From positions 1 through 32,000 of the forward strand of contig NZ_JBNMGD010000012.1 of NCBI RefSeq assembly GCF_050872065.1: a DNA stretch of 32,000 bases. The letters run 5' to 3'. The stretch's first letter is position 1. The number at the start of each line of letters is the position of its first letter. A program made the position numbers and the translations under genes. Of this stretch, positions 1,443 to 22,523 are shown piece by piece. Origin of the DNA: Methanobrevibacter sp. (GTDB lineage Archaea > Methanobacteriota > Methanobacteria > Methanobacteriales > Methanobacteriaceae). The notes under the pieces were generated by a model. That model ran no database searches, was not told the DNA's origin, and saw only the letters and a program-made list of their open reading frames with translations.

Positions 1443-1718
1443 ATGTATACTATAGCTATTTTTGATGTTAAATTCAAAACTAACAAAGAGAAAATTGAAA
1501 ACATTTTAAGACACTTTGGACTTAGAAAAATTCAGACAAATACATATATTGGAAAATTAAGTAATGCTAATTTAACTAGTTTTAAAAAAGAAATTAAATT
1601 GGCAATTCCTAAAAAAGATAGCCTATTAATTCTACCAATTTGTGATAACTGCTATTCAAAAAAAGATACATTTGGACGAAGAATAAATTTCAGTGAAAAT
1701 TTGTATAGGGTGTTTTAG
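1443..1718 (+). CDS. cas2: CRISPR-associated endoribonuclease Cas2
   Basis: The track ORF starts at TTG 1422. ATG 1443 gives MYTIAIFDV..., the canonical Cas2 first beta-strand with the conserved Asp. GLRKIQTNTYIGKL and DSLLILPI fit the Cas2 ferredoxin fold. About 91 aa. The TAG stop at 1716-1718 abuts the cas1 ATG at 1720. Confidence 0.8.
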   Translation: MYTIAIFDVKFKTNKEKIENILRHFGLRKIQTNTYIGKLSNANLTSFKKEIKLAIPKKDSLLILPICDNCYSKKDTFGRRINFSENLYRVF

Positions 1719-1719
1719 A

Positions 1720-2715
1720 ATGAATATTCTAATTGAAGGATTCAACAAATCAATTCACAAAAAAGATAATCAACTTGTCATAAAACAAAAAGATATTATC
1801 CTAGATTCCATTAAAGCAGACAAAATATCTAGCATAGTTATAATAGGAAAAGGATATATAACATTTGATGCCCTAACACTAATTGCAAATAATAACATCA
1901 AACTAATTTCAATTGATTATTTAGGTAAATTAAATTATTTAATAGAATCACCAGACTGGAGAAATGTGAAAATAAAAAAACAGCAGTATTTACTAAGTGA
2001 AAATAAAAAAGGTATCAAGATATCCCGTGAAATAATAAAATCAAAAATGATAAACCAAAAATCAACATTAACAACCTTAAACAAGCGCCGTAAAATTAAA
2101 GAAATAGATGAAATAAAAAATAATATTACTCTTCAAATTAATAGATTGAATTCCATTAAACTAACAAATAATCATGAAAAAGTAAAAATGCAAATAATGG
2201 GGTGTGAAGGAAAAGCATCAGCTCATTATTGGAGTGGGATAAAATTATTAATCCCCAAAGATATAGGATTTGAAAAAAGAACCAAAAAACCAACAGACTT
2301 ATTGAATTCCATGCTGAACTATGGATATGCTATTTTGGCAACTGAAATAACCAAATCAATATTAATAAATGGATTAGATCCATATTGCGGTTTCCTCCAT
2401 TTCGACATGGACCAAAGAACAAGTTTAACATATGATTTAATAGAAGATTTCAGACAACAACTCGTAGACAAAACAGTATTAAATCTTATCAATAGAAAAC
2501 AAGTTACAAATAATGATTTAGATAAAAGAAACAAAACTATAAAATTAGAAAAAAGAAAACTGATTATTTCAAAAATTCAAGAAAAACTACACTCAACAAT
2601 AAAATACAATGATGAAGAAGTAACTTACAGCGAAATAATTAATAAACAATCATCAAATTTAGTAAAAACTCTTTTAAATGATGAAAAATTTAAAGGATTT
2701 AATTTGCATTGGTGA
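1720..2715 (+). CDS. cas1: CRISPR-associated integrase Cas1
   Basis: Cas1 hallmarks are present: GCEGKASAHYW (catalytic Glu region), NSMLNYGYAIL, and GLDPYCGFLHFDMDQRTSLTYDLIEDFR (His plus two Asp). The likely start is ATG 1720 after a GGGTG RBS; the track ORF start at 1693 overlaps cas2. Confidence 0.92.
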   Translation: MNILIEGFNKSIHKKDNQLVIKQKDIILDSIKADKISSIVIIGKGYITFDALTLIANNNIKLISIDYLGKLNYLIESPDWRNVKIKKQQYLLSENKKGIKISREIIKSKMINQKSTLTTLNKRRKIKEIDEIKNNITLQINRLNSIKLTNNHEKVKMQIMGCEGKASAHYWSGIKLLIPKDIGFEKRTKKPTDLLNSMLNYGYAILATEITKSILINGLDPYCGFLHFDMDQRTSLTYDLIEDFRQQLVDKTVLNLINRKQVTNNDLDKRNKTIKLEKRKLIISKIQEKLHSTIKYNDEEVTYSEIINKQSSNLVKTLLNDEKFKGFNLHW

Positions 2716-2900
2716 AGACAACATTAATATTTTTAAGTTATGAATGTTTGTCCTAAAAAACAGATAAAAAAAGATAGTACTTAGATAATTTTTTGAGGAC
2801 AACAATGCCCTTTTTTAAGGAAAAAATCATGACCCTGAAAAAAAATTTAAAAAAGAAAAATAAATACCTTAAATAACTAAAAGAAGAAAAAATAATAAGA
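2716..2900 (+). promoter_or_regulatory. Putative CRISPR leader
   Basis: 185-bp non-coding stretch rich in A/T runs, lying between the cas1 stop and the first repeat copy. This is the classical leader position. No promoter was mapped. Confidence 0.5.
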
Positions 2901-2937
2901 GTTTAAAACGAATATTATCTTAAGTAATATTCAGAAC
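2901..2937 (+). repeat. CRISPR-type repeat R1 (perfect)
   Basis: 37 nt. Parses as GTTTAAAAC, 8-bp stem GAATATTA/TAATATTC around a 7-nt loop TCTTAAG, then AGAAC. First copy after the leader. Confidence 0.9.
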
Positions 2938-2979
2938 CAAAGAATGCGAAAGAAATAATATATTGTGGAGGTAGATAAT

Positions 2980-3234
2980 ATGACATACTTTTTAGATATG
3001 GATTTACATGAACCTTTTGGTATACCAGAAGTTGTTGAAACTACTGCAGATACTCGCACACGTCTAAGCAATAAGACAACTAAGGAATTAGTTGATTATT
3101 TGATTGGGGTGGACAAGAGTATTAAAGCAGGTTTTGAGAATGCGATTTATTTCCAGGAATGGAGTGTTGGATCTGATATTCTACGTAAGCGTGGTTATGA
3201 AATTCATGGACCATCTGATATTTATAATTTATAG
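2980..3234 (+). CDS. Hypothetical protein (84 aa) in the compositionally foreign block
   Basis: ATG 2980 is preceded by GGAGGT at a 7-nt spacing (track ORF starts at GTG 2965). G+C is much higher than the surroundings. No family recognised. Confidence 0.6.
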   Translation: MTYFLDMDLHEPFGIPEVVETTADTRTRLSNKTTKELVDYLIGVDKSIKAGFENAIYFQEWSVGSDILRKRGYEIHGPSDIYNL

Positions 3235-3247
3235 GAGGTAGATATAA

Positions 3248-3931
3248 GTGGTTTTATTAGAATTGTTAGGTGTAGCTTTAGGTGCTTCTTTAGTTAATGG
3301 CATGGCTAAGAAATCAAGTATGAAAGCAAATCCGCAATTAGATGTTAAGCAATTTGATGCTGATTGTGCTAGATATAGTGTGATCGGTCAAGACATCATG
3401 GATGTTGCTGCTCGTTGTGGTGTAAAACCGAATAAATACGGTGTGTTGCCAGAAGATGGGTACAAGCATTGCATGGGATATGTCACTCAGTATGTCAATC
3501 ATCCTGACGATGTTGAATTATTCAAACGTGATTGGTTATTGACTGTTGAACAACAACTCAAAGCTAAATCAAATCTGATGATTCGTAAGTATTGGGATGA
3601 TTATCAGCATCAGTATAATGGTTACTTGAACAACAAAGAGTATTGGACTTCTGGACCGGAGATTGTACTGGAGTTTAAGCACTGGCATGGTTTGCCAAAA
3701 GATCAGCATTTGAAACGCTTAAAAGATATTCAAACTAAAACATTTTGGGGTGAATTATGTTTGCAAGATCCAATCTTACGCAAGAATCCACGCATTAATG
3801 ATTCATACATTGAAGTATGGGTAATGAGAGGTGGTAAACATGACAAACAAGGCAATTGGGTAACACATAATGCTTGGGAAATGACATATGAGATTTGCTG
3901 TGGTGTGTGTGGCTATGACGCAATGTTATAG
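3248..3931 (+). CDS. Hypothetical protein (227 aa) in the compositionally foreign block
   Basis: GTG start preceded by AGGAGGT. Hydrophobic N-terminus (LLELLGVALGASLV) and Cys-rich C-terminus (CCGVCGYD). About 42% G+C by hand count of lines 3361-3480 and 3661-3720. No family recognised. Confidence 0.7.
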   Translation: MVLLELLGVALGASLVNGMAKKSSMKANPQLDVKQFDADCARYSVIGQDIMDVAARCGVKPNKYGVLPEDGYKHCMGYVTQYVNHPDDVELFKRDWLLTVEQQLKAKSNLMIRKYWDDYQHQYNGYLNNKEYWTSGPEIVLEFKHWHGLPKDQHLKRLKDIQTKTFWGELCLQDPILRKNPRINDSYIEVWVMRGGKHDKQGNWVTHNAWEMTYEICCGVCGYDAML

Positions 3932-3955
3932 TCACATTTTTAAAAAGGTGATATT

Positions 3956-4209
3956 ATGGTATTAATTTATAAAACAGAAGATAATGAATATTTTACTTTA
4001 GCAGAATTAGCACAAAAATTTCCAAAAGAGTGGGCTTACTGTTTGAGTTTAAAACGAATATTATCTTAAGTAATATTCAGAACAAAACTTTGGGAAACAG
4101 ATCCAATTGCCTATTATGAATGGAAACGTGAGTGTATTGAACTGAATATGTTACCTGATTTTTTTGGTACTCGTGATAATCCTATTCCTATTGATGAATC
4201 TAAATTATA
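3956..4209 (+). pseudogene. Small ORF split by repeat copy R2
   Basis: ATG 3956 (MVLIYKTEDNEYFTLAELAQKFPKEWAYCL) runs into R2 and stops at the TAA inside the repeat. The same reading frame reopens right after R2 (KLWETDPIAYYEWKRECIELNMLPDFFGTRDNPIPIDESKL) and ends at TAA 4207-4209. Confidence 0.45.
4047..4083 (+). repeat. CRISPR-type repeat R2 (perfect)
   Basis: Identical 37-mer, same orientation as R1. Confidence 0.9.
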
Positions 4210-4229
4210 AAACTTTTTTTTTAAATTTT

Positions 4230-4266
4230 GTTCTGAATATTACTTAAGATAATATTCGTTTTAAAC
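4230..4266 (-). repeat. CRISPR-type repeat R3 (perfect, inverted)
   Basis: Exact reverse complement of the 37-mer, 146 bp from R2. Confidence 0.9.
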
Positions 4267-4306
4267 GTAATAAAAATATGTATGTTAAGGATTGGAGTGA
4301 AAACAA

Positions 4307-5419
4307 ATGGTGGAGAAAAAACTCAAAAAGTCAGATGAAAGATTTGGTCTTGAATTTGAAGTTAAGAAAAATACAAAGAATGCAAACCGTATCGGATTCA
4401 GTAATACATTATTTGATGTTGGTGAAAAAGTCTATGTTCTGTCAGAAGAGCAGCACTATGATATTATAAAACAGATAGATCAGGTTGATGAATACAAAGA
4501 AAGAATAGCTGAACTTGAAACTGAAATAGCTAATGGATTAACAGACAATAATCTTGAAAATGAACTTCAGGAAAAAGATCAAATGATTAACACTCTGAAA
4601 GATAGGGTTGATTCACTTGGAAAAGAACTTGAATCAAATAAATCAGAAGTTAAAGTCCATGATAAAGATGAAATGGAAGAGTTAAAAGAACAGCTTAAAA
4701 GTTCACAGTCTCAGGAAGCTTATTGGAAAAATGCTTATGAAAATCTGATTGATACATCTGATGAATTATCTGCCAGAAATGAATCCCTCATTAAAGAAAA
4801 TGAAAAACTAAGAAACGATAACAATAACATTAACGAAACCAACAAATTGTTAAATGACAATATGATGGGATTAAACGATAACTATAAAGAAACAAAAGAC
4901 GAACTCCAGTCCAATTTTGAAGAAAAGGAAAATGAATTAAAAGAAACCATTGAAAAACAACAATCTCATATAGATGAATTAAATGATAAATTACAATCCT
5001 TATCCAGTCTTAAAGAATATATTCCACCAAAAGAACATTATGAAGCACTTGAGGAATTGAAAGATAAAATAAAAGAAGTTGAAACAGAATTAAACAAAGC
5101 CAATGCTGAAATCAATCTTAAACTATCCAATCAGAAATCTGAACTGGAAATAAAACACACTGAAGAAAAAGCACAAATGCTAATAGCTTACAATCAAGAG
5201 CTTAACAATAACAAATTAAAATATAATGAACTAGCAAAAGATTATAATCATTTACTTGGAGATGCTAATTCATTATCAAGAATAAACACTTTCTTTAATG
5301 GGAAACATAAACTAATTGTTAAAGATAAAGAACCTGTGGAACTTGAAGAGATAGAGGTGGAAAAAGAACCAACAGAAACAATAGAATATGTTCCCAAAGA
5401 CAAAGTAACATTAATATGA
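4307..5419 (+). CDS. Coiled-coil protein (370 aa), function unknown
   Basis: GGAGTGA RBS before the ATG. Long E/K/N/L-rich heptad-like stretches (ELETEIANG..., LKEQLKSSQ..., ELNDKLQSL...). The last 82 nt are duplicated at 6949-7030. Confidence 0.75.
   Translation: MVEKKLKKSDERFGLEFEVKKNTKNANRIGFSNTLFDVGEKVYVLSEEQHYDIIKQIDQVDEYKERIAELETEIANGLTDNNLENELQEKDQMINTLKDRVDSLGKELESNKSEVKVHDKDEMEELKEQLKSSQSQEAYWKNAYENLIDTSDELSARNESLIKENEKLRNDNNNINETNKLLNDNMMGLNDNYKETKDELQSNFEEKENELKETIEKQQSHIDELNDKLQSLSSLKEYIPPKEHYEALEELKDKIKEVETELNKANAEINLKLSNQKSELEIKHTEEKAQMLIAYNQELNNNKLKYNELAKDYNHLLGDANSLSRINTFFNGKHKLIVKDKEPVELEEIEVEKEPTETIEYVPKDKVTLI
5336..5417 (+). repeat. 82-bp direct repeat, left copy (3' end of the coiled-coil gene)
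   Basis: GTGGAACTTGAAGAGATAGAGGTGG...AACATTAATAT matches 6949-7030 at 80 of 82 positions. Confidence 0.9.
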
Positions 5420-5452
5420 ATATTTATTTATTAATATATGAAAGGTGAAACT

Positions 5453-6925
5453 ATGGATAAAGCATCAGAAAAAGTACCTAAAGTATTTATATCTTATTCT
5501 TGGACAAATGAAGAACATATAGAACAAGTTATAGAATTTGCTACATATTTGGTTAATAATCATGTTGATGTCATATTGGATGAATGGGATGCTCCTGAAG
5601 GAATAGACTTAAATTATTTCATGGAAGAAAATGTTAGATCAGAAGACACAGATTTTGTTCTCATAATTTCTGATAAAGAATATGCTCGTAAAGCTAACGA
5701 AAGAACGGGTGGTGTTGGTACTGAAACACAAATTATTAGCAAAAGAGTTTATGAAGATGTAAACCAAACAAAGTTTATCCCAATAGTTTGGCAAAATGAT
5801 GATGATGGAAAACCATGTCTACCAGATTATTTAGCATCTAGAAGATATTTTGATTTAACACCGAAGAATAGATATTCAAATTCTGAAAAAGTATTACGAA
5901 GATTACATGGTATTCCAGAAAATCCAAAACCAAAATTGGGTGAATTTCCTAAGAAATTGTTAGAAACTAATAAATATTATCCCTCGTTAAAAGAAATTAT
6001 CGAAACATTTGATGAAAAAATTGAAAAAAATCCTAAATCAATCAATTCAATTTCAAGACATTTCTTTAAAGATTTTTTACATAATTTTGATGAGTTTAAA
6101 ATAAAATTTCAGACACGAAATGCGTTAGAAATTGCTAATCAATTACACGATAATATTGAAGAGTTTATTCCATTAAGAAATTATTATATTGAATTTATTG
6201 AAAAAATTACTCAAGTTTATGAGTTTGCCCCAGTAGATGGCGATATAATTAAAGAATTATTTGAAAATATTTATTCTAACTATTTTATACCTAAACCTGG
6301 TGAATCTTATATAAGTGAAGATTTTATGAATTTTGACTTTATCGTAAGAGAACTTTTTTTATATACAATTACTATCTCAATTAAAAATGAATATTACCAA
6401 CTTACAAGTAATCTTTTAAACACTCCGTATTTTTTTAATGACCCATATAATTCTAATGATACTAAAACATTTTTAGATTTGGACAAAAGAAGATATGTTC
6501 GTACTGATGAATATTTAACATATTATTGTAAGGAACATAATCTTAATAAATTAACTGGGATGGGACATTTTTTGATTTCAAGAATTCATAAAAATTATGT
6601 AATTGAAGAATTAGTAAACTCAGACATCTTATGTTGTCATATTTCTATAATTAATTTGCAGGATTCCGATGGTTGGTTCCCATTTACATATATTTACAAA
6701 GAAACAAAGTACATGCATTTATATCAAAAATTAATTTCTGAAAGTTATTATAAGAAAGTTAAATGTATCTTTGACATTGAATCTAAAGAAGAATTGGTAA
6801 AGAAGATTAAATATTCTGATGAGTATTTTGGAAAAATGAGATATGGATTTAGAAGTGTTTTCATGAATTATGTTAAACCAATTAGTGAATATATTAATGC
6901 TGATGAAATTGCAAGTAGAAAATAG
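5453..6925 (+). CDS. TIR/SEFIR-like domain protein with a roughly 300-aa uncharacterised C-terminal domain
   Basis: The N-terminus KVFISYSWTNEEH...VDVILDEWD...FVLIISDKEYARKANERTGGVGTETQII...KFIPIVW matches the bacterial TIR-like/SEFIR pattern (FISYSW, DxWD, GGVGxE). ATG 5453 follows an AAAGGTGA RBS; the track start is 5438. Confidence 0.7.
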   Translation: MDKASEKVPKVFISYSWTNEEHIEQVIEFATYLVNNHVDVILDEWDAPEGIDLNYFMEENVRSEDTDFVLIISDKEYARKANERTGGVGTETQIISKRVYEDVNQTKFIPIVWQNDDDGKPCLPDYLASRRYFDLTPKNRYSNSEKVLRRLHGIPENPKPKLGEFPKKLLETNKYYPSLKEIIETFDEKIEKNPKSINSISRHFFKDFLHNFDEFKIKFQTRNALEIANQLHDNIEEFIPLRNYYIEFIEKITQVYEFAPVDGDIIKELFENIYSNYFIPKPGESYISEDFMNFDFIVRELFLYTITISIKNEYYQLTSNLLNTPYFFNDPYNSNDTKTFLDLDKRRYVRTDEYLTYYCKEHNLNKLTGMGHFLISRIHKNYVIEELVNSDILCCHISIINLQDSDGWFPFTYIYKETKYMHLYQKLISESYYKKVKCIFDIESKEELVKKIKYSDEYFGKMRYGFRSVFMNYVKPISEYINADEIASRK

Positions 6926-6948
6926 TTTGTATATACCAATATTTAAAA

Positions 6949-7030
6949 GTGGAACTTGAAGAGATAGATGTGGAAAAAGAACCAACAGAAACAATAGAAT
7001 ATGTTTCCAAAGACAAAGTAACATTAATAT
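6949..7030 (+). repeat. 82-bp direct repeat, right copy
   Basis: 80/82 identical to 5336-5417. It retains the coding frame of the coiled-coil C-terminus (VELEEIDVEKEPTETIEYVSKDKVTLI, then a stop) without an upstream gene body. Confidence 0.9.
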
Positions 7031-7033
7031 AAA

Positions 7034-7564
7034 CTATTCAATTGATTTGAGTATCTCATCCATCAATTCAGAAGTGTTAATGTTATTTTCCTCACCTATT
7101 TCATATTCAATAACAGATCCAACCAGCTTGTCAAGGGATCTATCTTGAATAGCTGAAATGATTCTTAACTTCATGTGAGTTTCAAGATCTACTTTAACAT
7201 TAATTCTTTTTCTGGGATTGCCTTTATTTAATAGCTTATCGTTAATATCATATGTAGAATTGTCTATATCTTTTCTTTTGAACCAGTCATCTTCATTAAC
7301 ATCTTTAAAAGCATCTTCAACATATTTGGCTATATCAATATCTGCAACTTTATCTTCAATAATGGATGTTGCAACTTTTTCTAAACTGGAATCTTTTGAA
7401 GCTGCAATAACTTTTAACTTCTTGTGAGTGTTTGGGAATAGCTTAACAGTTATTTGTTTTCTTTGTGTTTCAATATCGTTAATGTAGTCTTCTTTAACTT
7501 CTTTTATGGCGTTTTCTCTTTGAACTTGTTTTTCAATAAGCTCTTCAATTTTATTGTCTGTCAT
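7034..7564 (-). CDS. Tandem ribbon-helix-helix (CopG/Arc-like) DNA-binding protein
   Basis: Two internal RHH-like units: KQITVKLFPNTHKKLKVIAASKDSSLEKVATSIIEDKV and KRINVKVDLETHMKLRIISAIQDRSLDKLVGSVIEYEI. AGGAGGA RBS upstream. Confidence 0.7.
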   Translation of the reverse strand: MTDNKIEELIEKQVQRENAIKEVKEDYINDIETQRKQITVKLFPNTHKKLKVIAASKDSSLEKVATSIIEDKVADIDIAKYVEDAFKDVNEDDWFKRKDIDNSTYDINDKLLNKGNPRKRINVKVDLETHMKLRIISAIQDRSLDKLVGSVIEYEIGEENNINTSELMDEILKSIE

Positions 7565-7584
7565 GTTATTTTCCTCCTGTATGT

Positions 7585-7619
7585 TTAATAATGTAATTAC
7601 ATTAATAATGTATTTACAT
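7585..7619. promoter_or_regulatory. Tandem palindromic operator-like sites upstream of the RHH gene
   Basis: TTAATAATGTAATTACAT is followed directly by TAATAATGTATTTACAT. The cores are the perfect 12-bp palindrome ATGTAATTACAT (7591-7602) and the near-palindrome ATGTATTTACAT (7608-7619). The sites lie 20-55 bp upstream of the RHH start codon. Confidence 0.5.
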
Positions 7620-7678
7620 AATATATTTTTGTTGATATATAAATATTATGTTATTTTGAAAAATAAGCTGCCCATCTC

Positions 7679-7725
7679 TGATGGACAGGTTGCGACGAGT
7701 GAAACGAGTCGCAATAGGTATATAC
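7679..7725. other. Two adjacent GC-rich hairpins in an AT-rich intergenic region
   Basis: CTGCCCATC-tct-GATGGACAG forms a 9-bp stem with one mismatch. TTGCGAC-gagtgaaacga-GTCGCAA forms a 7-bp stem. Function unknown. Confidence 0.3.
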
Positions 7726-7755
7726 TAAAAAGTTAGTTAATGGTTGGGTTAAAGT

Positions 7756-7773
7756 GACATTAACATTAACGAT
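7756..7773 (+). repeat. Solo left end of the MITE-like element
   Basis: GACATTAACATTAACGAT is identical to the left terminus of copy B (11983-12000). No matching right end follows. Confidence 0.5.
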
Positions 7774-7959
7774 TGATATTTCCTTACTGGAATTATATTT
7801 TCTTACTAGACAGACATCATACTGGCAAATATGATATATTTTTTTTAAAAGTAACTTTATCAGGTTCTTTGAATGATTTTTTACAACTGGTTTTATTAGG
7901 GATTCAAGAGTTTAATTTGTTGATGATTGTTATTAAGTTATTAATTTAATGGAATGGCT

Positions 7960-8072
7960 TTAACATTAACGGCAAGGGTTCTGGAATTGGATTTGGTTTT
8001 CACACTTGGATATATATGCACGAGTTTCAGGAATTAAGTTTTGAAATGGTAATGTTGGATGTTAATGTTAAT
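7960..8072 (+). repeat. MITE-like element, copy A (about 113 bp)
   Basis: Perfect 11-bp terminal inverted repeats: TTAACATTAAC (7960-7970) and GTTAATGTTAA (8061-8071). About 85% identical to copy B by eye. Non-coding. Confidence 0.7.
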
Positions 8073-8128
8073 AGTTTATATCATAACATTTACAAAACTA
8101 GATTTAACAAAATAATGTTTGGATACAT

Positions 8129-9577
8129 ATGTCAAATTATCATTTTTTTAATAGAAAAGAGCTAGAACAAATTCTTGATGAATGCCTTAATAAAACATTA
8201 GGTGAAGTAGATAAGAACAATGTTTTTGAAATAACAAAGACACATCCTAAATATACTGGAATAGCTGGACATGTAATTGAACAATCTGTATTGGGATATC
8301 CTGCAGATACTAGACAAGAACCTGACTTGGATGTTGATGGTGTTAAAACAGAATTAAAAACAACTGGTATTAAATACATAAGAAATAACACTCAATTTGT
8401 TGCTAAAGAACCTATGAGTATTACGGCCGTGTCTCCTCACACTATCGTTAATGAAACATTTGATGATTCTAATTTTTGGCATAAACTAGCTCACTTATTA
8501 TTTGTTTATTATTTATATGACTCACCAACCACTGTTAAAGCTGCAGGATATGCAGACTTTCCAATTAAAGGTTATCAATTTTATGAATTCAATTCAGAGG
8601 ATACAGAAATATTAAAAAATGACTGGACAATAGTTAGAAACTTTATTTCCTGCTTACAGGATAACTATGAGAATTATGAGGATGAATATCCAAGAATATC
8701 TCATGAATTAAGACCTAAGTTGATGTATATTGATACTGCTCCTAAATGGCCACATAATCCAAGATTCAGATTAAAAAGAAGTGTGGTGTCATCTATCATT
8801 CAAGATCACTTTGGTGAATCTTTAGAGCAATTACCTAAAACATATACTTCCTATTCTGAGATTTATGAAACCTGTCATGAGTTGACAGATCAATATAAAA
8901 ATAAACCAATCCATGAACTTGTTGATTTATTGGATATTAAGGTTAATAGAATTAATAAAGCAATTGGAGAACAGATTATTGTTAAAATGTTTGGTGGAAC
9001 ATCAAGGAAAATGCAAAAGATAAAACTATTCAATAGATTAGGAATTATTGGTAAAACATTAACATTAACAGAGAGAGGACTTCGAAAGGAAGATATGAAA
9101 CTGTTTACAATTGATTTTGATGAATTTACTGAAGATATTGAATTTGAAGATTCACAAACCTATGATTACTTTAACAACAATAGATTTTTATCTATAATAT
9201 TCCAAAGGCCTGAAGCTGATGCTGAAATGAAAGATAATATCTTTTTAGGATTTAAAATGCTTACTTTTGAAAGTAGCTTTATTGAAAATGATGTTAAGAA
9301 TACTTGGGAGAGAATTAAGGATTTAATAGTTAATGATAATCTGGAGGATGTTGTTGTCTTAGATAGCCAAGGACAACCTCGTAAAAATAGAAGCGGTAAT
9401 ATAATGAGTGCTCCTAACTTTCCTAAGAGTTCTGAAGGAAATGTATTCGTTAGAGGAACAAGTTCCACATCTGATGAGAAACCATTGACATTGAATGGAA
9501 TAAAAATGTATAGACAACAAATGTGGGTTAAAGGATTGTATATAGTTAATAAGCTCAATGAAGAGGATTATATTTAA
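8129..9577 (+). CDS. Type II restriction endonuclease, Sau3AI/MutH-like (predicted GATC specificity)
   Basis: 482 aa. The N-terminal MutH-like catalytic region is KYTGIAGHVIEQSVLG...EPDLDVDGVKTELKT (D...ELK). Size and the two-domain layout resemble Sau3AI. The gene is paired with a C5-methyltransferase. Confidence 0.7.
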   Translation: MSNYHFFNRKELEQILDECLNKTLGEVDKNNVFEITKTHPKYTGIAGHVIEQSVLGYPADTRQEPDLDVDGVKTELKTTGIKYIRNNTQFVAKEPMSITAVSPHTIVNETFDDSNFWHKLAHLLFVYYLYDSPTTVKAAGYADFPIKGYQFYEFNSEDTEILKNDWTIVRNFISCLQDNYENYEDEYPRISHELRPKLMYIDTAPKWPHNPRFRLKRSVVSSIIQDHFGESLEQLPKTYTSYSEIYETCHELTDQYKNKPIHELVDLLDIKVNRINKAIGEQIIVKMFGGTSRKMQKIKLFNRLGIIGKTLTLTERGLRKEDMKLFTIDFDEFTEDIEFEDSQTYDYFNNNRFLSIIFQRPEADAEMKDNIFLGFKMLTFESSFIENDVKNTWERIKDLIVNDNLEDVVVLDSQGQPRKNRSGNIMSAPNFPKSSEGNVFVRGTSSTSDEKPLTLNGIKMYRQQMWVKGLYIVNKLNEEDYI

Positions 9578-10833
9578 TCTTCTTTTTCAATTACTCCTTC
9601 TAAATATTTTCCTAGCTTTTGAACAATACCTACTACTAAAGCATTACCCATCATAAAATATCTTCTTCTTTCTGTCATAGCTTTAGATTCTATATTAGTC
9701 CAATTATCCGGAAACATTTGTATTCTTTCAGCTTCAACTGGTGTTAATGTTCTATATATGTCTTTTTCTTCATTAACTCCTATGATATGTGAACTTCTGT
9801 TTGTTGTGCTTTCACTTGTGAGCATTGTTCTTGCAGGTGCATCTAAATGATCTGGAAATGCAATAGCTCCTTCTGAATAGCAATAGGTTTCACCATTTGG
9901 TTTTTTCCTTTCAAGTTTTTTAGAACCTTTCAAGTATTTCCATTTCTCAAGTTTTTCACCAGATATAATGTATTTATCATCAAAATTAGTTTCAAGGATG
10001 TCTCCTAATGTTGTAAACTCTCCAGAATAATTTGGTTCAACTTTATATGTATAAACATTACCATTAATCATACATCCTGCATTATAGAAATGAAAATCAA
10101 ACTCATCACTAACGGAAACAATATCTTCATAGTCTTCTTTAGAAATACTTGATTTGCCTTTTTCTAATTGAGTATCTTTAATTGGGAAATTTGTAGCGAA
10201 TATTCCGTTAGTATACACAAGTTGTTCTGCTGAATATTTTATCATGTCTTTAAAGTAATTGGTAGATTTATGATAAGCATAAATGAATACTCTTCTTCTT
10301 TTTTGAGGAAATCCATATTCTGCTGCATTAATTACTCTCCATTCAACTGCATATCCATTATCAAGAAATGACCTTAACATTATTCCAAAGTCACGTCCTC
10401 TTTGAGTTGATGGTGAACGTAATAATCTATCTACATTTTCAAGTAAAACAAATGGAGGTTGTTTGGTTTCAAGGACTTCGGCTATTTCCCACCAGAGAAC
10501 TCCTTTCTTACCTTCAATACCTTTTTCATTGGATAAAGACCTTGCCACTGAATAATCCTGACATGGAAAACCTCCTACAAGTAATGTGTGATTTGGAATG
10601 GTAGTTTTGTCAACTTTGCCAATATCTTCACATACATGATTTTCAGATGCTCCGAATCTTTCAGTATAGCAATCAAATGCTGCCTGTGTTTTAGTGGATG
10701 GTTCCCATTGGTTAGCCCAGATAAAATCCCAATTATCTTTTTCAGTAACTTCATTGCCGTTATATGTTACTTCATTGAATCCACAGCGGAATCCACCAAC
10801 TCCAGCAAATAATTCTACAACTGTCTTATCCAT
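9574..10833 (-). CDS. DNA (cytosine-5)-methyltransferase
   Basis: Motif I ELFAGVGGF, motif IV GGFPCQDYS, motif VI LLENV, motif VIII QKRRRVFI and motif X GNALVV are present. The likely start is MDKTVVELF at 10833 after a GGAGA RBS; the track extends to 10893. The 3' ends overlap the endonuclease gene by 4 nt. Confidence 0.9.
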   Translation of the reverse strand: MDKTVVELFAGVGGFRCGFNEVTYNGNEVTEKDNWDFIWANQWEPSTKTQAAFDCYTERFGASENHVCEDIGKVDKTTIPNHTLLVGGFPCQDYSVARSLSNEKGIEGKKGVLWWEIAEVLETKQPPFVLLENVDRLLRSPSTQRGRDFGIMLRSFLDNGYAVEWRVINAAEYGFPQKRRRVFIYAYHKSTNYFKDMIKYSAEQLVYTNGIFATNFPIKDTQLEKGKSSISKEDYEDIVSVSDEFDFHFYNAGCMINGNVYTYKVEPNYSGEFTTLGDILETNFDDKYIISGEKLEKWKYLKGSKKLERKKPNGETYCYSEGAIAFPDHLDAPARTMLTSESTTNRSSHIIGVNEEKDIYRTLTPVEAERIQMFPDNWTNIESKAMTERRRYFMMGNALVVGIVQKLGKYLEGVIEKED

Positions 10834-10983
10834 AGTAATTTCTCCAATAGTTAATATATTTATAACAAACATATTAATAATTAACGAGATCAATTAAAAA
10901 GTATTAATTAACTTAAAATTAAACTGATATATAAGAATAATTAAATTAAGAATTCAATTCGTTATAGAACATTATAGGAGCAG

Positions 10984-11229
10984 ATGTTTATGGAAAATTT
11001 AGAAAATGTACATGCTATAATTAATACAATAGCTGAAGACCCAAGAGTGGATGTTTCTAAAATAGATGATTATACATTTAATGTTGTTATTAATGGAGAA
11101 CTAATGGATTCATTTGAAAAACTTGGAGAAATCCAAAAGAAGATAAATGATGGTTGTTCTGATGAATATACTCTTAAAACTATTTATGGTGACGGACAAG
11201 ATGCAAAATTAATTTTAGAAAAGAATTAA
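10984..11229 (+). CDS. Hypothetical small acidic protein (81 aa)
   Basis: AGGAG RBS before the ATG. No family recognised. Confidence 0.55.
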   Translation: MFMENLENVHAIINTIAEDPRVDVSKIDDYTFNVVINGELMDSFEKLGEIQKKINDGCSDEYTLKTIYGDGQDAKLILEKN

Positions 11230-11245
11230 ATTCATAGGTCTTACA

Positions 11246-11527
11246 ATGAGTGCTGACATATTTGAAAAGAATAATATAAGATTACCTACTATTGAAGAAG
11301 TTGAGGAAATAGATAATCCTCCAGTTGTAGCACATTTTACCAATGGACTTTGGGATTGGTATGTAATAGCTGGAGAAAAACTTGATGATGATTATCGTTT
11401 ATTAGGATTAGTTAATGGTGATTATAAAGAGATGGGAACATTTACTTTAAAACAATTAGAAAATGTCTCAGCTAAATTAATATCTATTGAAAACATAAGT
11501 CTTCAAGAAGTAAAGTCCAGAATATAA
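11246..11527 (+). CDS. DUF2958-like protein
   Basis: LPTIEEVEEIDNPPVVAHFTNGLWDWYVIAGEKLDDDYRLLGLVNGDYKEMGTFTLKQLE fits the DUF2958 pattern from memory (LP.lys.E...dp.v..kFf.p...WtWY..E....d..fGlV.G.e.ElGyfsL.EL). That family is common on plasmids and conjugative elements. Confidence 0.55.
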   Translation: MSADIFEKNNIRLPTIEEVEEIDNPPVVAHFTNGLWDWYVIAGEKLDDDYRLLGLVNGDYKEMGTFTLKQLENVSAKLISIENISLQEVKSRI

Positions 11528-11528
11528 T

Positions 11529-11906
11529 TTATTTAACATAATCCGTATATTTCATTAATAATCCAATAACTGTAGGTAATGCAGACTCATAACTTGCAAA
11601 TTCTATGTTTTCTTTTTTACCAATATCTATTTCAATTCCTGTAATCCCTTGAATGGTTTCCGTGTTTATACTTTTAATATCTTTGAACTTGATTACTTTT
11701 CTTGGTTTTTGAATTATTAATCTGTCATCTTCGAGAAATAAAGTTGTAGTTATAACTTCTTGTTCTTCTTTAGCTCCGCCTGCAAGAATTCCTGTTGTTA
11801 AAAATAGTGCAGCACTTGCTAAAGCGGTATTGGATTTTTTAGTAATGACCATTTTAATTTCAGCTTTACCTGCTCTTAAAAGTCTTTCAACTTCTGAATC
11901 AACCAT
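11529..11906 (-). CDS. Hypothetical protein (125 aa)
   Basis: AGGTGA RBS, then ATG 11906 (MVDSEVERLL...). The track start at 11915 is the GTG inside the RBS. One central hydrophobic segment. No family recognised. Confidence 0.55.
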   Translation of the reverse strand: MVDSEVERLLRAGKAEIKMVITKKSNTALASAALFLTTGILAGGAKEEQEVITTTLFLEDDRLIIQKPRKVIKFKDIKSINTETIQGITGIEIDIGKKENIEFASYESALPTVIGLLMKYTDYVK

Positions 11907-11982
11907 GATATTCACCTATTAAAATATTGTTTTTATTATTAATTAAATTGATAGATTTATTTTAAGTTGAATTTAATTCATT

Positions 11983-12097
11983 GACATTAACATTAACGAT
12001 AGGGGTTCTATAATTGGATTTGGATTTCGCACTTGGATATAATGTGCAGGGGTTTCGGGAATTAAGTTTTGAATTGGTGATGGTGGATGTTAATGTC
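11983..12097 (+). repeat. MITE-like element, copy B (about 115 bp)
   Basis: Perfect 11-bp terminal inverted repeats: GACATTAACAT (11983-11993) and ATGTTAATGTC (12087-12097). The internal sequence aligns with copy A. Confidence 0.7.
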
Positions 12098-12486
12098 AGC
12101 AGCCAGAATTTTATTGATGTATATATTTATTTTTTTTATTATGTTTGTTCTATATTTTTTTAAATATTTTTTATAATTTGTAATTTAATTTAATATATAA
12201 ATAGTTCGTATCTTTTCTTTTTTTACGTATATTATAAACAGAAATATACGTTTAATTTATATATAAAATAAGAGAATTTTGAAGTTTTTAGTTAAAAATC
12301 CAAAAAAGAACAAGGACATATACATATGTGTATTACAAGTAGTACATTTATCTAAATTAATAAAAAAGTGTATATGTTGCTTTATTATTCATCATATGTT
12401 ACAATTTTGAAAATATTTTTTGGGTGTTAAATGCTTTACAGAAGTTTCTAATATCTTGAATCAATATCAATAGTTATTAATTTAAA

Positions 12487-12605
12487 ACATTAACATTAAC
12501 ATTAACGGAAGGAGTAATGGTTTTGGATTTGGGTTTTAAACTGGGATATATATGAAAGCATTTCTAAAAAGAGTTTTCAAATAGCTATTGGTGAGTATTA
12601 ATGTA
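12487..12605 (+). repeat. MITE-like element, copy C (diverged)
   Basis: Starts ACATTAACATTAACATTAACGG and ends TATTAATGTA. Internal blocks (TTGGATTTGG, GGGATATATATG, GAGTTTTCAA) are colinear with copies A and B, at roughly 65-70% identity by eye. Confidence 0.5.
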
Positions 12606-12754
12606 TCTGTTATTAATCCGCCCCAGTTTACAAATACTTATTCTAAAATATTAGTTCTTGAGCAATTCATTGTCTTTTAGATATTCAATGAATTTCAAAA
12701 TCATTTTTGTTTCACGTTATCCAATAGCAGTTCTGAAAAGTCAGTTACATAATA

Positions 12755-13297
12755 TCATAAAGAAAAATTATATCGTAATGAACGTCCTGCATGTGCTTTA
12801 GATTCTAATTCATCAATTTTCCTATGAATAATTTTTCTTGCATCATCAACACAACAATTTTCATATAAATAATCATTTTCTTCAGGAGTTACTAATTTAT
12901 AATATTCTGAACTATATCCGTATTTTCGGTATATTTCATTTTCTATTGTTTGTAATATTCTTAATTTAAGTTCTAAGAAATAGGTTGTATTTTTTTTATC
13001 ATTTAAATAAATAAAGATTGGAATTGCATTATCACAAACTTCTGTAATTTTAAATAAATTATTGGTTCTTTCGTATATATTACATAATCTTTTATATGTT
13101 GTTGGACTACCAACTTTTTCAGAAACATTTATTTCATATAAGTTTATAGCTCCTTCTAAATCATTCATTTCTTCTAATAGTTTAGCTTTTTTATTTCTTT
13201 CCAATTGTTTTTTTGTTGGTCTAAAATCTGCAAAAACATTAAGAGTATATCTTTTTCTAGCTTTATCATATCTATCTTTTTTATTTGATGTTTCCAT
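12755..13297 (-). CDS. Hypothetical protein (180 aa), possibly TPR-like helical
   Basis: Complete ORF. On the minus strand its ATG lies 2 nt downstream of repeat R4. The AINLYE...YKRLCNIYE pattern is weakly TPR-like. Confidence 0.6.
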   Translation of the reverse strand: METSNKKDRYDKARKRYTLNVFADFRPTKKQLERNKKAKLLEEMNDLEGAINLYEINVSEKVGSPTTYKRLCNIYERTNNLFKITEVCDNAIPIFIYLNDKKNTTYFLELKLRILQTIENEIYRKYGYSSEYYKLVTPEENDYLYENCCVDDARKIIHRKIDELESKAHAGRSLRYNFSL

Positions 13298-13299
13298 AA

Positions 13300-13336
13300 G
13301 TTCTGAATATTACTTAAGATAATATTCGTTTTAAAC
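13300..13336 (-). repeat. CRISPR-type repeat R4 (perfect, inverted)
   Basis: Exact reverse complement of the 37-mer, same orientation as R3. Confidence 0.9.
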
Positions 13337-13391
13337 GTATGAGTACGAAAAATTATTATTCAAACATATAAATCCAGTTCCTGAAATTGAT

Positions 13392-13718
13392 ATGGACTCA
13401 TTCTTTTTAGATAATCAAAATATTAGAGGAGCACGTACAATCGCAGGAACTATATTGGAGAAAAAACAAATAAAAATACAGGGAAAAATTATTCTAAATT
13501 GGGAAGAATTGCATGCTGTAAAAACATATAGTGGACATTTCCATAAACAAATTAATGGATATGTCCGAAAAAATAGTGATTGGGAGAAATATTTCGAGAA
13601 CCAATTAAATAAAGAATTCACAGGAGATGAGACTATAAAAGAAATTGAAGATTTGATTGAAGACCCTGATTCAGCAATGAAGAAAACACCAAGTTTAACT
13701 CAGAGTATGACCAAATGA
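13392..13718 (+). pseudogene. N-terminal fragment of an ADP-ribosyltransferase (C3/exoenzyme-like) domain gene
   Basis: AVKTYSGHFHKQINGYVRKN matches the Y-[TS]-G-x-x-Y-x-x-IN-x-x-LR region of ART toxins, and IEDPDSAMKKTPSLTQSMT matches the following helix. The ORF stops just where the catalytic Arg strand would begin. Confidence 0.35.
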
Positions 13719-13758
13719 AATAAAGTTAAGGTTTTTATTGCTTCAGTCGTTTCATTGG

Positions 13759-13793
13759 GTTTAAATCAAATTATCTTAAGTAATATCCAGAAC
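13759..13793 (+). repeat. CRISPR-type repeat R5 (degenerate, 35 nt)
   Basis: GTTTAAATCAAATTATCTTAAGTAATATCCAGAAC. The right 24 nt differ from consensus at 1 position. The left part has a 2-nt deletion plus substitutions. Confidence 0.7.
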
Positions 13794-13815
13794 TCACTTG
13801 AAAATTAATTTAACA

Positions 13816-14835
13816 CTATTCATTTAATTTAAACCTTAATATATCATCCCAATGCCTTCTTAATACAATTTCACATTCTAGTTTGTCTAAATCATATGCA
13901 ATAGACCATTGAGTATTACTTGCAATATCTTCAGGGTTTGGGTCTTGTGCTGATGCTTTTAATGCTTTCCATACATCAGTTATTCCATTTCCACCATTAT
14001 TTATTACATCCATTATGGAGTCATACCTTTCTTTTCCTTTTCCATATATTCCATTTACTCTATTTGGTTTTACTTTATCAATATACATTCCATAGAAATT
14101 TGTTGCAGCTTTAAATTTAGTAACAACCATTGGTCTTTCTTCTTTTTCAGGATCAAATTCCACTACTCTACCATCCCCAGTCTTATCTGTTATATAGAAA
14201 TGATAATCCCTCCCACTCGTAGATAAAATATCATATTGTTTGATTAATTTTATCGCTTCTTCTGTTGTTTTAGCTTTATCTAAAATTAATCTAATTAATA
14301 CAGTCGTTAATAAAATAGGTTTCCCAGTTTTTTGAATTGTTGGTTTGCTTGTTTGTGTCAATACAGCTATTCCAAGCCCCTTTTCATTAATCCCATCTAA
14401 ACAGATATATGGTGAAATTAAACATAATGCTTTTGTTCCCCTGCTTATTTCGGGATCATTATTATAAATATGATTTAATGCTGCAAATCCTATTGATTTA
14501 TATCCATTTTTAGGATTACATCTTACAAGTAGTGCTGATGAATCAAAAGAGAAATCATAGTTCCTTCCAAATAAAAATTTTTCATCATTTGGCATTGTAA
14601 ATGCTGAACATCCATAATTAGGAATTTCCAATTCCAATTCTACTCCCGGAAGAGCATCTGCGAAGGTTAATTCCATCATTTGTTGATCACTTATCTCTCC
14701 TTCGACAATTGGAGTTACCTTATCGATATTATAATCATATTTTATTTCTATAGAATAAAGATTATAATCATTATATTCCGTAAGTTTTTTAATGGTTTTA
14801 ATTGATTCCATTCTATCTTCTGATAATTCTAACAT
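13816..14835 (-). CDS. Ntn-hydrolase, peptidase C45 / choloylglycine-hydrolase-like
   Basis: NYGCSAFTM (candidate nucleophile Cys after a roughly 74-aa pro-region) followed by FGRNYDF. DKTGDGRVVEF and the overall length fit linear-amide C-N hydrolases. Confidence 0.6.
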   Translation of the reverse strand: MLELSEDRMESIKTIKKLTEYNDYNLYSIEIKYDYNIDKVTPIVEGEISDQQMMELTFADALPGVELELEIPNYGCSAFTMPNDEKFLFGRNYDFSFDSSALLVRCNPKNGYKSIGFAALNHIYNNDPEISRGTKALCLISPYICLDGINEKGLGIAVLTQTSKPTIQKTGKPILLTTVLIRLILDKAKTTEEAIKLIKQYDILSTSGRDYHFYITDKTGDGRVVEFDPEKEERPMVVTKFKAATNFYGMYIDKVKPNRVNGIYGKGKERYDSIMDVINNGGNGITDVWKALKASAQDPNPEDIASNTQWSIAYDLDKLECEIVLRRHWDDILRFKLNE

Positions 14836-14956
14836 TCTTTCATCCTATTAATATTTTTTCTATATTTATAAAAAAAAGTTCAATGAAATACTGACTAATT
14901 TTAAATATTTCACCATTCCATATTTAAAGTTTATGTAAAATTACCCCTTCACCCTA

Positions 14957-14993
14957 GTTTAAAACGAATATTACCTCAAGTAATATTTAAAAC
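14957..14993 (+). repeat. CRISPR-type repeat R6 (degenerate, 33/37)
   Basis: GTTTAAAACGAATATTACCTCAAGTAATATTTAAAAC. There are four substitutions: two in the loop, one turning a stem G-C pair into G-T, and one in the 3' tail. Confidence 0.75.
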
Positions 14994-15354: not shown

Positions 15355-16624
15355 ATGGTTTCTATTTCTTTATATAATATAATAGACACCCTATTCGTAG
15401 CAGGGATCAGTGCAAATGCATTAACAGCAATTGGAATATTTCCTCCAGTTTATATACTGATTGTATCAATCGGACAAGGTTTAATTACAGGAATGATAAG
15501 CATAATGTCCAATTACATAGGAGCAAATGAAAAAGAAAAAGCAAATAACGTCTTTTGGCATGGGATTTTAATATCCCTTATAATTTCAATAATCTGTTTT
15601 GTATTTGCATTTTTTGGTCTTAAAGAACTATTAATTATCATGGGAGCAGAATCTGTAATAGATCTTACTATGGATTATGCTCAAACAGTATTTGCAGGAA
15701 GTATTATAATAATTTTAAATACTGTAACAATTTCATCTTTAAGAGCAGAAGGAGATATGAAAAAAGCATCAAATATTACCATTTTTGGATTTGTTTTGAA
15801 TATAATTCTTGATTACTTCTTAATATATTTCCTTAATTTTGGAATTTGGGGAGCTGGTGCTGCAACAATACTATCCACATTAATTGGAACAATTGTTGTT
15901 ATATACTGGCTATTTGTTAAGAAAGATACATACCTACAAACTAAATGGTCTCATTTTAAATTTAATATGAAATATATAAAAAATATACTATCTTTAAGTA
16001 TTCCAGCTACTTTAGAAGGGTTTGTAATGAGTTTTCTATTTATATTTGTTAATATGATTTAATAGTAGCTGGTGGAGACATCCATGTTGCAGCATTTACA
16101 GGATCTTAGAAAATACTGTCCTTAGGAATGATACCTGCAATAGGAGTTGAAGCAGCTATTTTAACTATTTCCGAATATTATTTTGGAGCTGAAAATTATA
16201 AGAGAATTAAAAGCATATATAAATATTCAATTATATTTTCCACAACCATCTCAATCATAATAGCTATTATCCTATTTATTTTTGCAAACCAAATTTCATA
16301 CTTATTCACATTATTAAATGGAGATAAATCATTAGGTTACTTAATAGCAAATATCATAAGATTATTTGGAATTTATATAATATTTGTTCCACTTGGTCTT
16401 TCATCAACCGCAATGTTTCAATCAGCACAAAAAGGATTTACTTCATTATCTTTAGTTATTTTAAGAGATCTTTTATTATCAACAATTTTTGCGTATATAT
16501 TGGGAATTCTATTAAACTTCGGAGTTTATGGAATTTATGTAGGAATCATACTTGGATGATTGTATCTTCCATATTTAGTTATTTCTACTTTAATTGGTAT
16601 TTAGATAAACTTAAAAATAATTAA
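15355..16624 (+). pseudogene. MATE-family efflux transporter, disrupted
   Basis: MATE-like TM pattern (YNIIDTLFVAG...ALTAIG...). About 25 N-terminal residues are missing. There are in-frame stops at 16060 and about 16107. The reading frame changes between 15355-16062 and 16128-16559, and again near 16556. Confidence 0.65.
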
Positions 16625-21974: not shown

Positions 21975-22523
21975 ACATATCACCTTTTTAATTAAGTTTT
22001 AAGCCTAAATTAATAATATACCACCATTATATCATTATTAATACTATAAACTTTAATATAAATAAATATTATTAAAATAAATACTCACATTATATTATCT
22101 CTTTGACTAATAAATTTTTAACCTATTCCTACTTCTTTTTGGAGGTTCAAAAATTATTTGATGAAATTCAATGGGATTCTACAAATTATGAAAATAAAAT
22201 TTCTGTTGAGGATATTCAATTATTTTTAGATGAATATGCCAAGGAAATTTGAATCCAACAATTACTTTCATGTGATAATAAAGTTGAATATACTTATCAC
22301 TCAGATAAAAATAACTATTTAAAATTATAAAAACCAACTAGTGGAAACTGAATCCTTTACGCTTACATCTAGTACAATACATTTCCCACCACATGATTTA
22401 AAAATGTGTCTTTTAGAAAATATACATATAAAAATAGAAAAAAATTAGAAAAAAGCTTTAAAAAGCCCTTTTCTATTGATTATTAAATTTCACAACTTTT
22501 CATGTAAATTAAAAGAATTTGTT

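Follow-up and report, generated by a model that had tools for sequence, protein, structure and literature searches.

A Cas1-Cas2 lineage of Methanobacteriaceae that may insert kilobase-long foreign DNA at a leader-adjacent repeat

The window analysed here, a stretch of 32 kb, is the start of contig C31 of a rumen Methanobrevibacter metagenome-assembled genome (MAG), designated G000 (1.45 Mb, 91 contigs, 90.4% complete, 0.03% contamination). It carries a cas2-cas1 gene pair, a leader, and exact 37-nucleotide (nt) repeats separated by spacers that reach several kilobases in length. From the comparison of this locus with its relatives, we conclude that this Cas1-Cas2 lineage probably integrates kilobase fragments at the leader repeat. 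According to this model, an intact Cas1-Cas2 integrase, which lost its effector partner or never had one, would take up double-stranded DNA fragments of about 0.15-9 kb and insert them at the 37-nt repeat next to the leader, and the repeat would be duplicated at each insertion. New units would pile up at the leader end, while old units and their repeats would decay at the trailer end. We infer that Cas1-Cas2 itself joins both ends of the fragment.

Close relatives of G000 are Methanobrevibacter from rumen and gut, and the Cas1 of M. thaueri SIG19 is 91% identical to the one studied here. Methanobrevibacter sp. SARD03_bin.040 (G004) was the closest relative used for comparison. The genus survey covered 103 genomes, 42 of which carry a Cas1 of this clade, and related loci span at least four genera of Methanobacteriaceae. 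Forty cas2-cas1 loci were fetched for comparison within the clade, and 27 loci with at least two repeat copies were used to determine spacer lengths.

Array layout and the cas2-cas1 module

The features of the locus, in window coordinates, are the following (aa, amino acids; ORF, open reading frame).

60-1301: ClC channel gene, upstream of cas2; the contig edge lies 60 nt before this gene
1443-1718 (+): cas2, 91 aa, ATG at 1443 and TAG at 1716-1718; PF09827 at 7.8e-15, TIGR01573 at 48 bits (cut-off 24.5)
1720-2715 (+): cas1, CRISPR-type integrase, 331 aa, ATG at 1720 and TGA at 2713-2715; PF01867 at 2.8e-67, TIGR00287 at 235 bits (cut-off 71.7)
2716-2900 (+): leader, 185 nt, with a TATA-like box at 2869-2876 and GTCCT/AGGAC motifs, from an alignment of 24 leaders
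2901-2937 (+): repeat R1, 37 nt, exact
2938-4046 (+): spacer S1, 1109 nt, 35% GC, virus-like, with two complete small genes and another that is truncated
4047-4083 (+): repeat R2, exact
4084-4229: spacer S2, 146 nt
4230-4266 (-): repeat R3, exact, inverted
4267-13299: spacer S3, 9033 nt, with viral genes, bSEFIR, a Sau3AI-like restriction-modification (R-M) pair and small ORFs
13300-13336 (-): repeat R4, exact, inverted, common to G004
13337-13758 (+): spacer S4a, 422 nt, with one 108-aa ORF, 97% identical in G004
13759-13793 (+): degenerate repeat, 35 nt
13794-14956 (-): trailer spacer S4b, 1163 nt, with a complete choloylglycine-hydrolase-family gene at 13816-14835 (PF02275), 99% identical in G004 and G031
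14957-14993 (+): terminal degenerate repeat, 4 mismatches

Across the clade, about 80 spacers in the 27 loci measure 146-9033 nt, with a median of 895 nt, and none is shorter than 100 nt. The repeats are about 37 nt long, exact within a genome and different between species; the 37-nt repeat of G000 is found nowhere else in that genome. The locus resembles a CRISPR adaptation module in its conserved leader followed by 37-nt repeats, but it lacks the regular short spacers (about 25-50 nt) of such modules, and spacers of 0.15-9 kb cannot feed the classical CRISPR RNA pathway.

The distance between the cas1 stop codon and the first repeat is 185-197 nt across the clade and 108-114 nt in a smithii-like subclade. 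In the leader of G000, the TATA-like box lies 28 nt before repeat 1, so that, given archaeal TATA-to-start spacing, transcription would start at the repeat. Judged by this spacing, the leader would act as a promoter, and the array is probably transcribed from the conserved TATA-like box.

An earlier sequence-only reading of this DNA had described cas2 and cas1 as tightly coupled, flanked by the ClC gene and the leader, and as the only cas genes in 32 kb. The coordinates agree with this description: a gap of 1 nt separates the cas2 stop from the cas1 start, and among the ORFs scanned in the window, which code for about 70 aa or more, these two were the only cas genes. No subtype-specific NCBIfam model was reached by Cas1, and PADLOC called generic Cas1 and Cas2 only. 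The best solved relative of Cas1 is that of Archaeoglobus fulgidus (4N06, 1.8e-64), the casposase 6OPM matching at only 1e-29, so that the protein is closer to CRISPR Cas1 than to casposases. For Cas2, the sole solved match is weak (3EXC, E 4.8e-4). This Cas1 is 40-43% identical to the Cas1 of type III-A loci with csm2-5 and CARF genes, and 25-28% identical to the Cas1 of type I loci. In a maximum-likelihood tree, the III-A-associated Cas1 proteins form one long branch beside or within the kilobase-spacer group and the type I-associated proteins are remote; the root is unresolved, since a long branch makes rooting with type I Cas1 unreliable. These sequence relationships indicate that the type III-A adaptation modules of the same genus are the likely nearest relatives of this Cas1-Cas2.

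Both genes are under purifying selection, with ratios of nonsynonymous to synonymous substitution rates (dN/dS) of about 0.1 (0.07-0.12 for cas1 and 0.06-0.16 for cas2, in unsaturated pairs). The Cas1 metal triad E163/H227/E242 is invariant in 50 sequences, so inactivating mutations, which would have spoken against the earlier reading, are not seen at these positions in the homologues. The claim that both proteins keep their catalytic residues was correct in substance and requires two amendments: the third Cas1 ligand is a glutamate, not an aspartate, and the N-terminal aspartate of Cas2 is present here (D8), while the position holds D, E or N across the clade. In the Cas1-Cas2 of Escherichia coli, Cas2 catalysis is dispensable for integration, and the variability of this residue in the clade fits such dispensability. 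The description of an intact module beside a non-canonical array is borne out by the selection data, the invariant triad and the clade-wide spacer lengths.

The proteins common to all 40 loci are Cas2 and Cas1 alone, and cas2 stands immediately before cas1 in every one of them. This order, correctly recognized and previously regarded as less usual, is normal in the genus: Methanobrevibacter type III-A modules, which have canonical arrays, are likewise arranged cas2-then-cas1. The order is therefore a lineage trait and no sign of recruitment.

Two variations of cas gene content were observed in other genomes. In G049 (L072, C17, 5999-8101), cas1 is tandemly duplicated. Fragments of cas1 or cas2 lie inside the arrays of two further loci (L075, 10041-10195; L052, 9252-9446), where they look as if they were captured pieces of related cas loci.

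Origin and polarity of the spacers

Sequence similarities point to a foreign origin of the spacers, in viruses, other mobile elements and foreign chromosomes. No homologue of the G000 spacer DNA was found elsewhere in G000 at the DNA or protein level. Spacer S1, with its GC content of 35% against 27% for the genome, has no homologue among the 103 genus genomes. Relatives of its 227-aa protein were detected only in metagenomes and on a 145-kb virus contig of IMG/VR, the latter with an alignment as query; a single-sequence query against IMG/VR and a search of INPHARED gave no match. Copies of S2 that are about 80% identical occur in several other genomes, without S1. A single gene split by R2 (3956-4210) was considered and rejected: the N-terminal part has a weak viral homologue, and the part after R2 remained unaligned. 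Because of this and of the occurrence of S2 without S1, the two spacers were treated as separate fragments.

S3 matches a virus: starting 3 nt after R3, its sequence is 78% identical to vir323 (BK063679.1), a tailed virus of Methanobacteriales. The viral sequence continues past the point corresponding to the R3 edge and is there unrelated to the array. S3 further encodes a bSEFIR protein (PADLOC, 4.9e-89) and a MutH/Sau3AI-type nuclease together with a C5 methylase. Spacers of other genomes encode a Mu-F-like head protein (G092), and a TMEM175-like channel and a DUF11 protein (G004).

S3 also has internal structure of its own. An 85-nt direct duplication (5336-5420 and 6949-7033) brackets the bSEFIR gene (5438-6925), and in vir323 and several genomes the genes flanking the bSEFIR position abut without it. 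An element of about 110-150 nt occurs three times (7920-8068, 11948-12096 and 12472-12604) and brackets the R-M pair. Distinct from this element is a conserved segment at window positions 12150-12287, of which most genomes of the genus have similar copies; these typically lie beside a tyrosine recombinase gene that is conserved and single-copy, and in many cases a short way upstream of cas2.

Genome comparison, on which this point depends, supports a leader-polarised acquisition of units. When different species are compared, the cas2-cas1-leader region is homologous up to the last position of repeat 1; beyond it, homology is seen again only in distal units or the flank. Compared with G281:C179, G126 carries four additional units at the leader end, and G066 and G111 have two distal units in common at 97.5% identity and differ at their leader ends. 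In G000, G004 and G031, a common trailer unit, in which two degenerate repeats enclose the hydrolase gene, is 97-99% identical. In G031, whose Cas1 is 64% identical to that of G000, the hydrolase unit follows directly after the genome's own leader and repeat. The choloylglycine-hydrolase unit is thus common to three species whose Cas1 proteins differ by up to 36%, and the gene looks like a retained one that has moved horizontally.

Several loci bear traces of exchange or rearrangement. The first repeat of G031 (L053, C15, ~7138-7174) is a hybrid, with a 5' half of the G031 type and a 3' half like the degenerate repeat at 13759-13793 of the window, which suggests recombination between arrays inside a repeat. 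In L031 (G281:C128), the repeat and about 220 nt of the first spacer are also found 1.6 kb upstream of cas2 (7753-8008 and 10832-11086), so that direct repeats bracket the cas2-cas1-leader block and offer a possible route for module exchange. A search of the metagenomes of the Joint Genome Institute with the exact repeat returned a single contig, which is a variant of the G004/G031 units. The metagenome contig L088 (SAMEA3663250 coassembly) has the same repeat and units in common with G004 and G031, one of which is 367 nt shorter right beside the repeat; unit borders can therefore change after insertion.

Just past the array, neighbouring ORFs at 15355-16062 and 16128-16559 both match MatE and are probably a split, pseudogenised efflux gene. 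Further downstream, a 597-aa ORF at 20190-21983 (-) lies within a region of locally raised GC content (37%) and has no Pfam or PADLOC match. Scans of the window for tRNA genes and Rfam families gave no match.

Spacer ends and competing explanations

The ends of the spacers carry a common bias. In repeat orientation, the third and fourth nucleotides that follow the repeat (+3 and +4) are A in 64% and 63% of 95 flanks, and the nucleotides at -4 and -3, ahead of the repeat, are T in 66% and 59% of 68 flanks. The binomial p values are 3e-6 and 3e-7, for assumed backgrounds of 0.40 and 0.35 and uncorrected for the roughly 96 position-base combinations inspected. The bias is mirror-symmetric (NNAA...TTNN), both inserted 3' ends being TTNN. 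Such symmetry is expected of an enzyme that treats both ends alike and not of homologous recombination, and, with the same bias at both ends, capture looks orientation-blind.

Spacer length is generally taken to be a fixed property of Cas1-Cas2, CRISPR integrases being regarded as enzymes that measure their substrate. Several observations weigh against the direct integration of kilobase fragments by this module. Between the Cas1 proteins of the clade and those of the type III-A loci there is no clade-specific insertion or deletion and only two residues are fixed differently; the protein sequence therefore offers no explanation for a lost length ruler, and none of the clade-specific Cas1 changes considered as a cause of the long inserts was convincing. 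In seven loci with at least 5 kb of downstream sequence, a second copy of the repeat was not found. Inverted repeat copies, which simple integration at the leader end does not produce, occur here (R3 and R4) and in G133 and G175; they may reflect captured pieces of other arrays. Furthermore, the spacer borders are not fully random: 51% of them cut into ORFs, compared with 80% of random cuts made in the G000 genome, and complete, tidy genes are present in some spacers.

Some of these observations are also what would be seen if Cas1-Cas2 only nicked the repeat or joined one end of the fragment (a half-site product), with host repair or recombination completing the event, or if long DNA entered Cas1-made breaks without two-ended integration. 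Besides the unexplained loss of length control, the inverted copies and rearranged units and the very broad range of lengths (146-9033 nt) agree with this explanation. The repeats, however, are exactly duplicated every time, no junction filler is present where the source is known, and the end bias is symmetric at both ends. We therefore regard this explanation as unlikely, while giving it more weight than the others discussed below.

A further explanation is integron-like or otherwise site-specific: circular elements bearing the repeat would recombine with its chromosomal copy, the enzyme being a tyrosine recombinase or Cas1 in a recombinase role. Integrons are indeed similar in that a promoter-proximal insertion platform gathers foreign units, some with whole adaptive genes. 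The repeats of our arrays can form hairpins, complete genes are present in some units (the hydrolase, the 108-aa ORF, the R-M pair), and a tyrosine recombinase gene is found in 14 loci, within 5 kb of cas2 in 11 of them. As a partner, however, this recombinase was rejected, being independent of the arrays: it occurs once per genome, at 78-96% identity, in 73 of the 103 genomes, some of which lack this Cas1, and searches of G000 and G004 did not detect it. The repeats are identical to one another, unlike variable attC sites. Among 162 spacer edges from all loci, 51% run into at least 50 open codons, and borders of which half cut genes argue against tidy cassettes. Viruses as carriers of the repeat were likewise rejected, as it was found neither in IMG/VR nor in the phage records of INPHARED. 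Taken with these points, an integron-like origin appears quite improbable. A separate idea, an Argonaute-fed array resembling a 'piRNA cluster' (piRNA, Piwi-interacting RNA), was discarded, no Piwi domain being present in the 103 genomes.

The module could also be an ordinary one that serves in trans a type I or type III effector whose genes lie in the 10% of sequence that the MAG lacks; the array would then be a decayed canonical one with mobile-element insertions. Whole-genome searches of G000 with hidden Markov models, which the sequence-only reading had called for, found one Cas1, no RAMP, Cas5, Cas6, DevR/Cas7 or Cas9 and no Cas3 above the cut-off (Cas12, Cas13 and cas10 were not searched), a result limited by the 90% completeness of the MAG. 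The single-contig genome G126 has no RAMP, Cas5, Cas6, Cas3 or Cas9 (DevR was sought in G000 only), and in neither G000 nor G126 was an effector with the same repeat found, Cas12 and Cas13 not having been searched. Cas4-family genes of G000 lie only on other contigs (C73 and C44) and are read as housekeeping genes because orthologues are present in every relative checked. Since C31 begins 60 nt before the ClC gene, the upstream region was inspected in G004, where the 10 kb on the far side of ClC carry housekeeping genes, among them those for a MatE transporter, a fumarase subunit, biotin ligase, a carboxylase and ribosomal protein L3.

Over the whole genus, RAMP genes were detected in 13, Cas5 in 12 and Cas6 in 22 of the 103 genomes, and they always adjoin other Cas1 genes, never those of this clade. 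The csm2-5 genes are absent beside this module and adjoin the 40-43% identical paralogue elsewhere. Supply in trans is compatible with the type I locus that G004 has on another contig and with the presence of some effector in 15 of the 42 carrier genomes; the other 27, G126 included, have no RAMP, Cas5 or Cas6. Effector loci, moreover, have their own Cas1 (25-43% identical), other repeats and canonical arrays of 11-60 repeats, and none of the roughly 80 spacers of the clade is of canonical size. An ordinary module acting in trans is thus largely refuted and very improbable. The proposal that the module serves something other than classical immunity gains support from the purifying selection, the 27 effector-less carriers and the kilobase spacers; gene order contributes no evidence to it, and for the MAG itself the absence of effectors rests on 90% completeness.

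An assembly artefact, in which short-read assemblers step from repeats into viral contigs through spacer-protospacer identity, might be suspected because G000, G004 and many relatives are MAGs, but is already refuted for the clade: the layout is present in the single-contig genomes G126 (2,273,296 bp), G161 (2,543,538 bp) and G066 (1,853,160 bp) as well as in about 25 independent assemblies, different species retain the same trailer units, and genomes with kilobase arrays also hold canonical arrays of 11-60 repeats beside type III-A or type I Cas1, whose normal assembly excludes misassembly.

Relation to known systems and significance

The closest known counterparts are the cas2-cas1 modules of Methanobrevibacter type III-A systems, which share with the locus described here the gene order, a leader, an exact repeat of CRISPR length, polarity with degenerate trailer repeats, and foreign spacers, in addition to the related Cas1 (40-43% identity). 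They differ in that their spacers measure about 35-40 nt, instead of 146-9033 nt. Here, no csm, cas6 or other effector gene lies alongside, mostly none is present in the genome, and both spacer ends show the same bias.

Casposons are comparable in that a Cas1-family integrase inserts kilobase DNA and duplicates its target. The module studied here, in contrast, combines a Cas1 of CRISPR type, not of casposase type, with Cas2, and its target, a 37-nt repeat, follows a leader. Its inserts are mutually unrelated, have no gene in common and hold unrelated truncated genes; a family-B polymerase and terminal inverted repeats were not searched.

Full-text searches of the literature turned up no account of kilobase-spacer arrays, whether in Methanobrevibacter or in other organisms. 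The nearest printed case is a single 'pseudo-spacer', SiL-E1 of Sulfolobus islandicus LAL14/1, a plasmid fragment of about 2 kb between perfect repeats without junction filler (Open Biol 2013, PMC3718332). SiL-E1 is a single exception in an ordinary array with effectors (PMC3718332), whereas here the spacers of an entire Cas1 clade are long without exception.

Beyond the integration of long fragments by Cas1-Cas2, we tentatively propose a broader role for this lineage: in methanogens of gut and rumen, it could be a natural writer of kilobase DNA that needs no effector, reads the same short motif at both fragment ends, inserts next to the leader, and so maintains a chronological archive of viral and other foreign DNA that is at the same time an entry gate for horizontally acquired genes. 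As to the benefit, our guess is that the archive is a store of foreign DNA that acts against returning viruses, via long transcripts or via homology. It is equally a guess that this store incidentally admits useful genes, such as those for R-M, bSEFIR and the bile-salt-hydrolase-like protein.

If our interpretation is correct, the CRISPR adaptation machinery would have a life independent of effectors. With cultured strains and closed genomes at hand, the lineage would be a tractable case for studying how length control is set, and a candidate natural tool for the site-specific insertion of long DNA. For the dominant methanogens of gut and rumen, it would represent a new route of gene flow and of virus memory.

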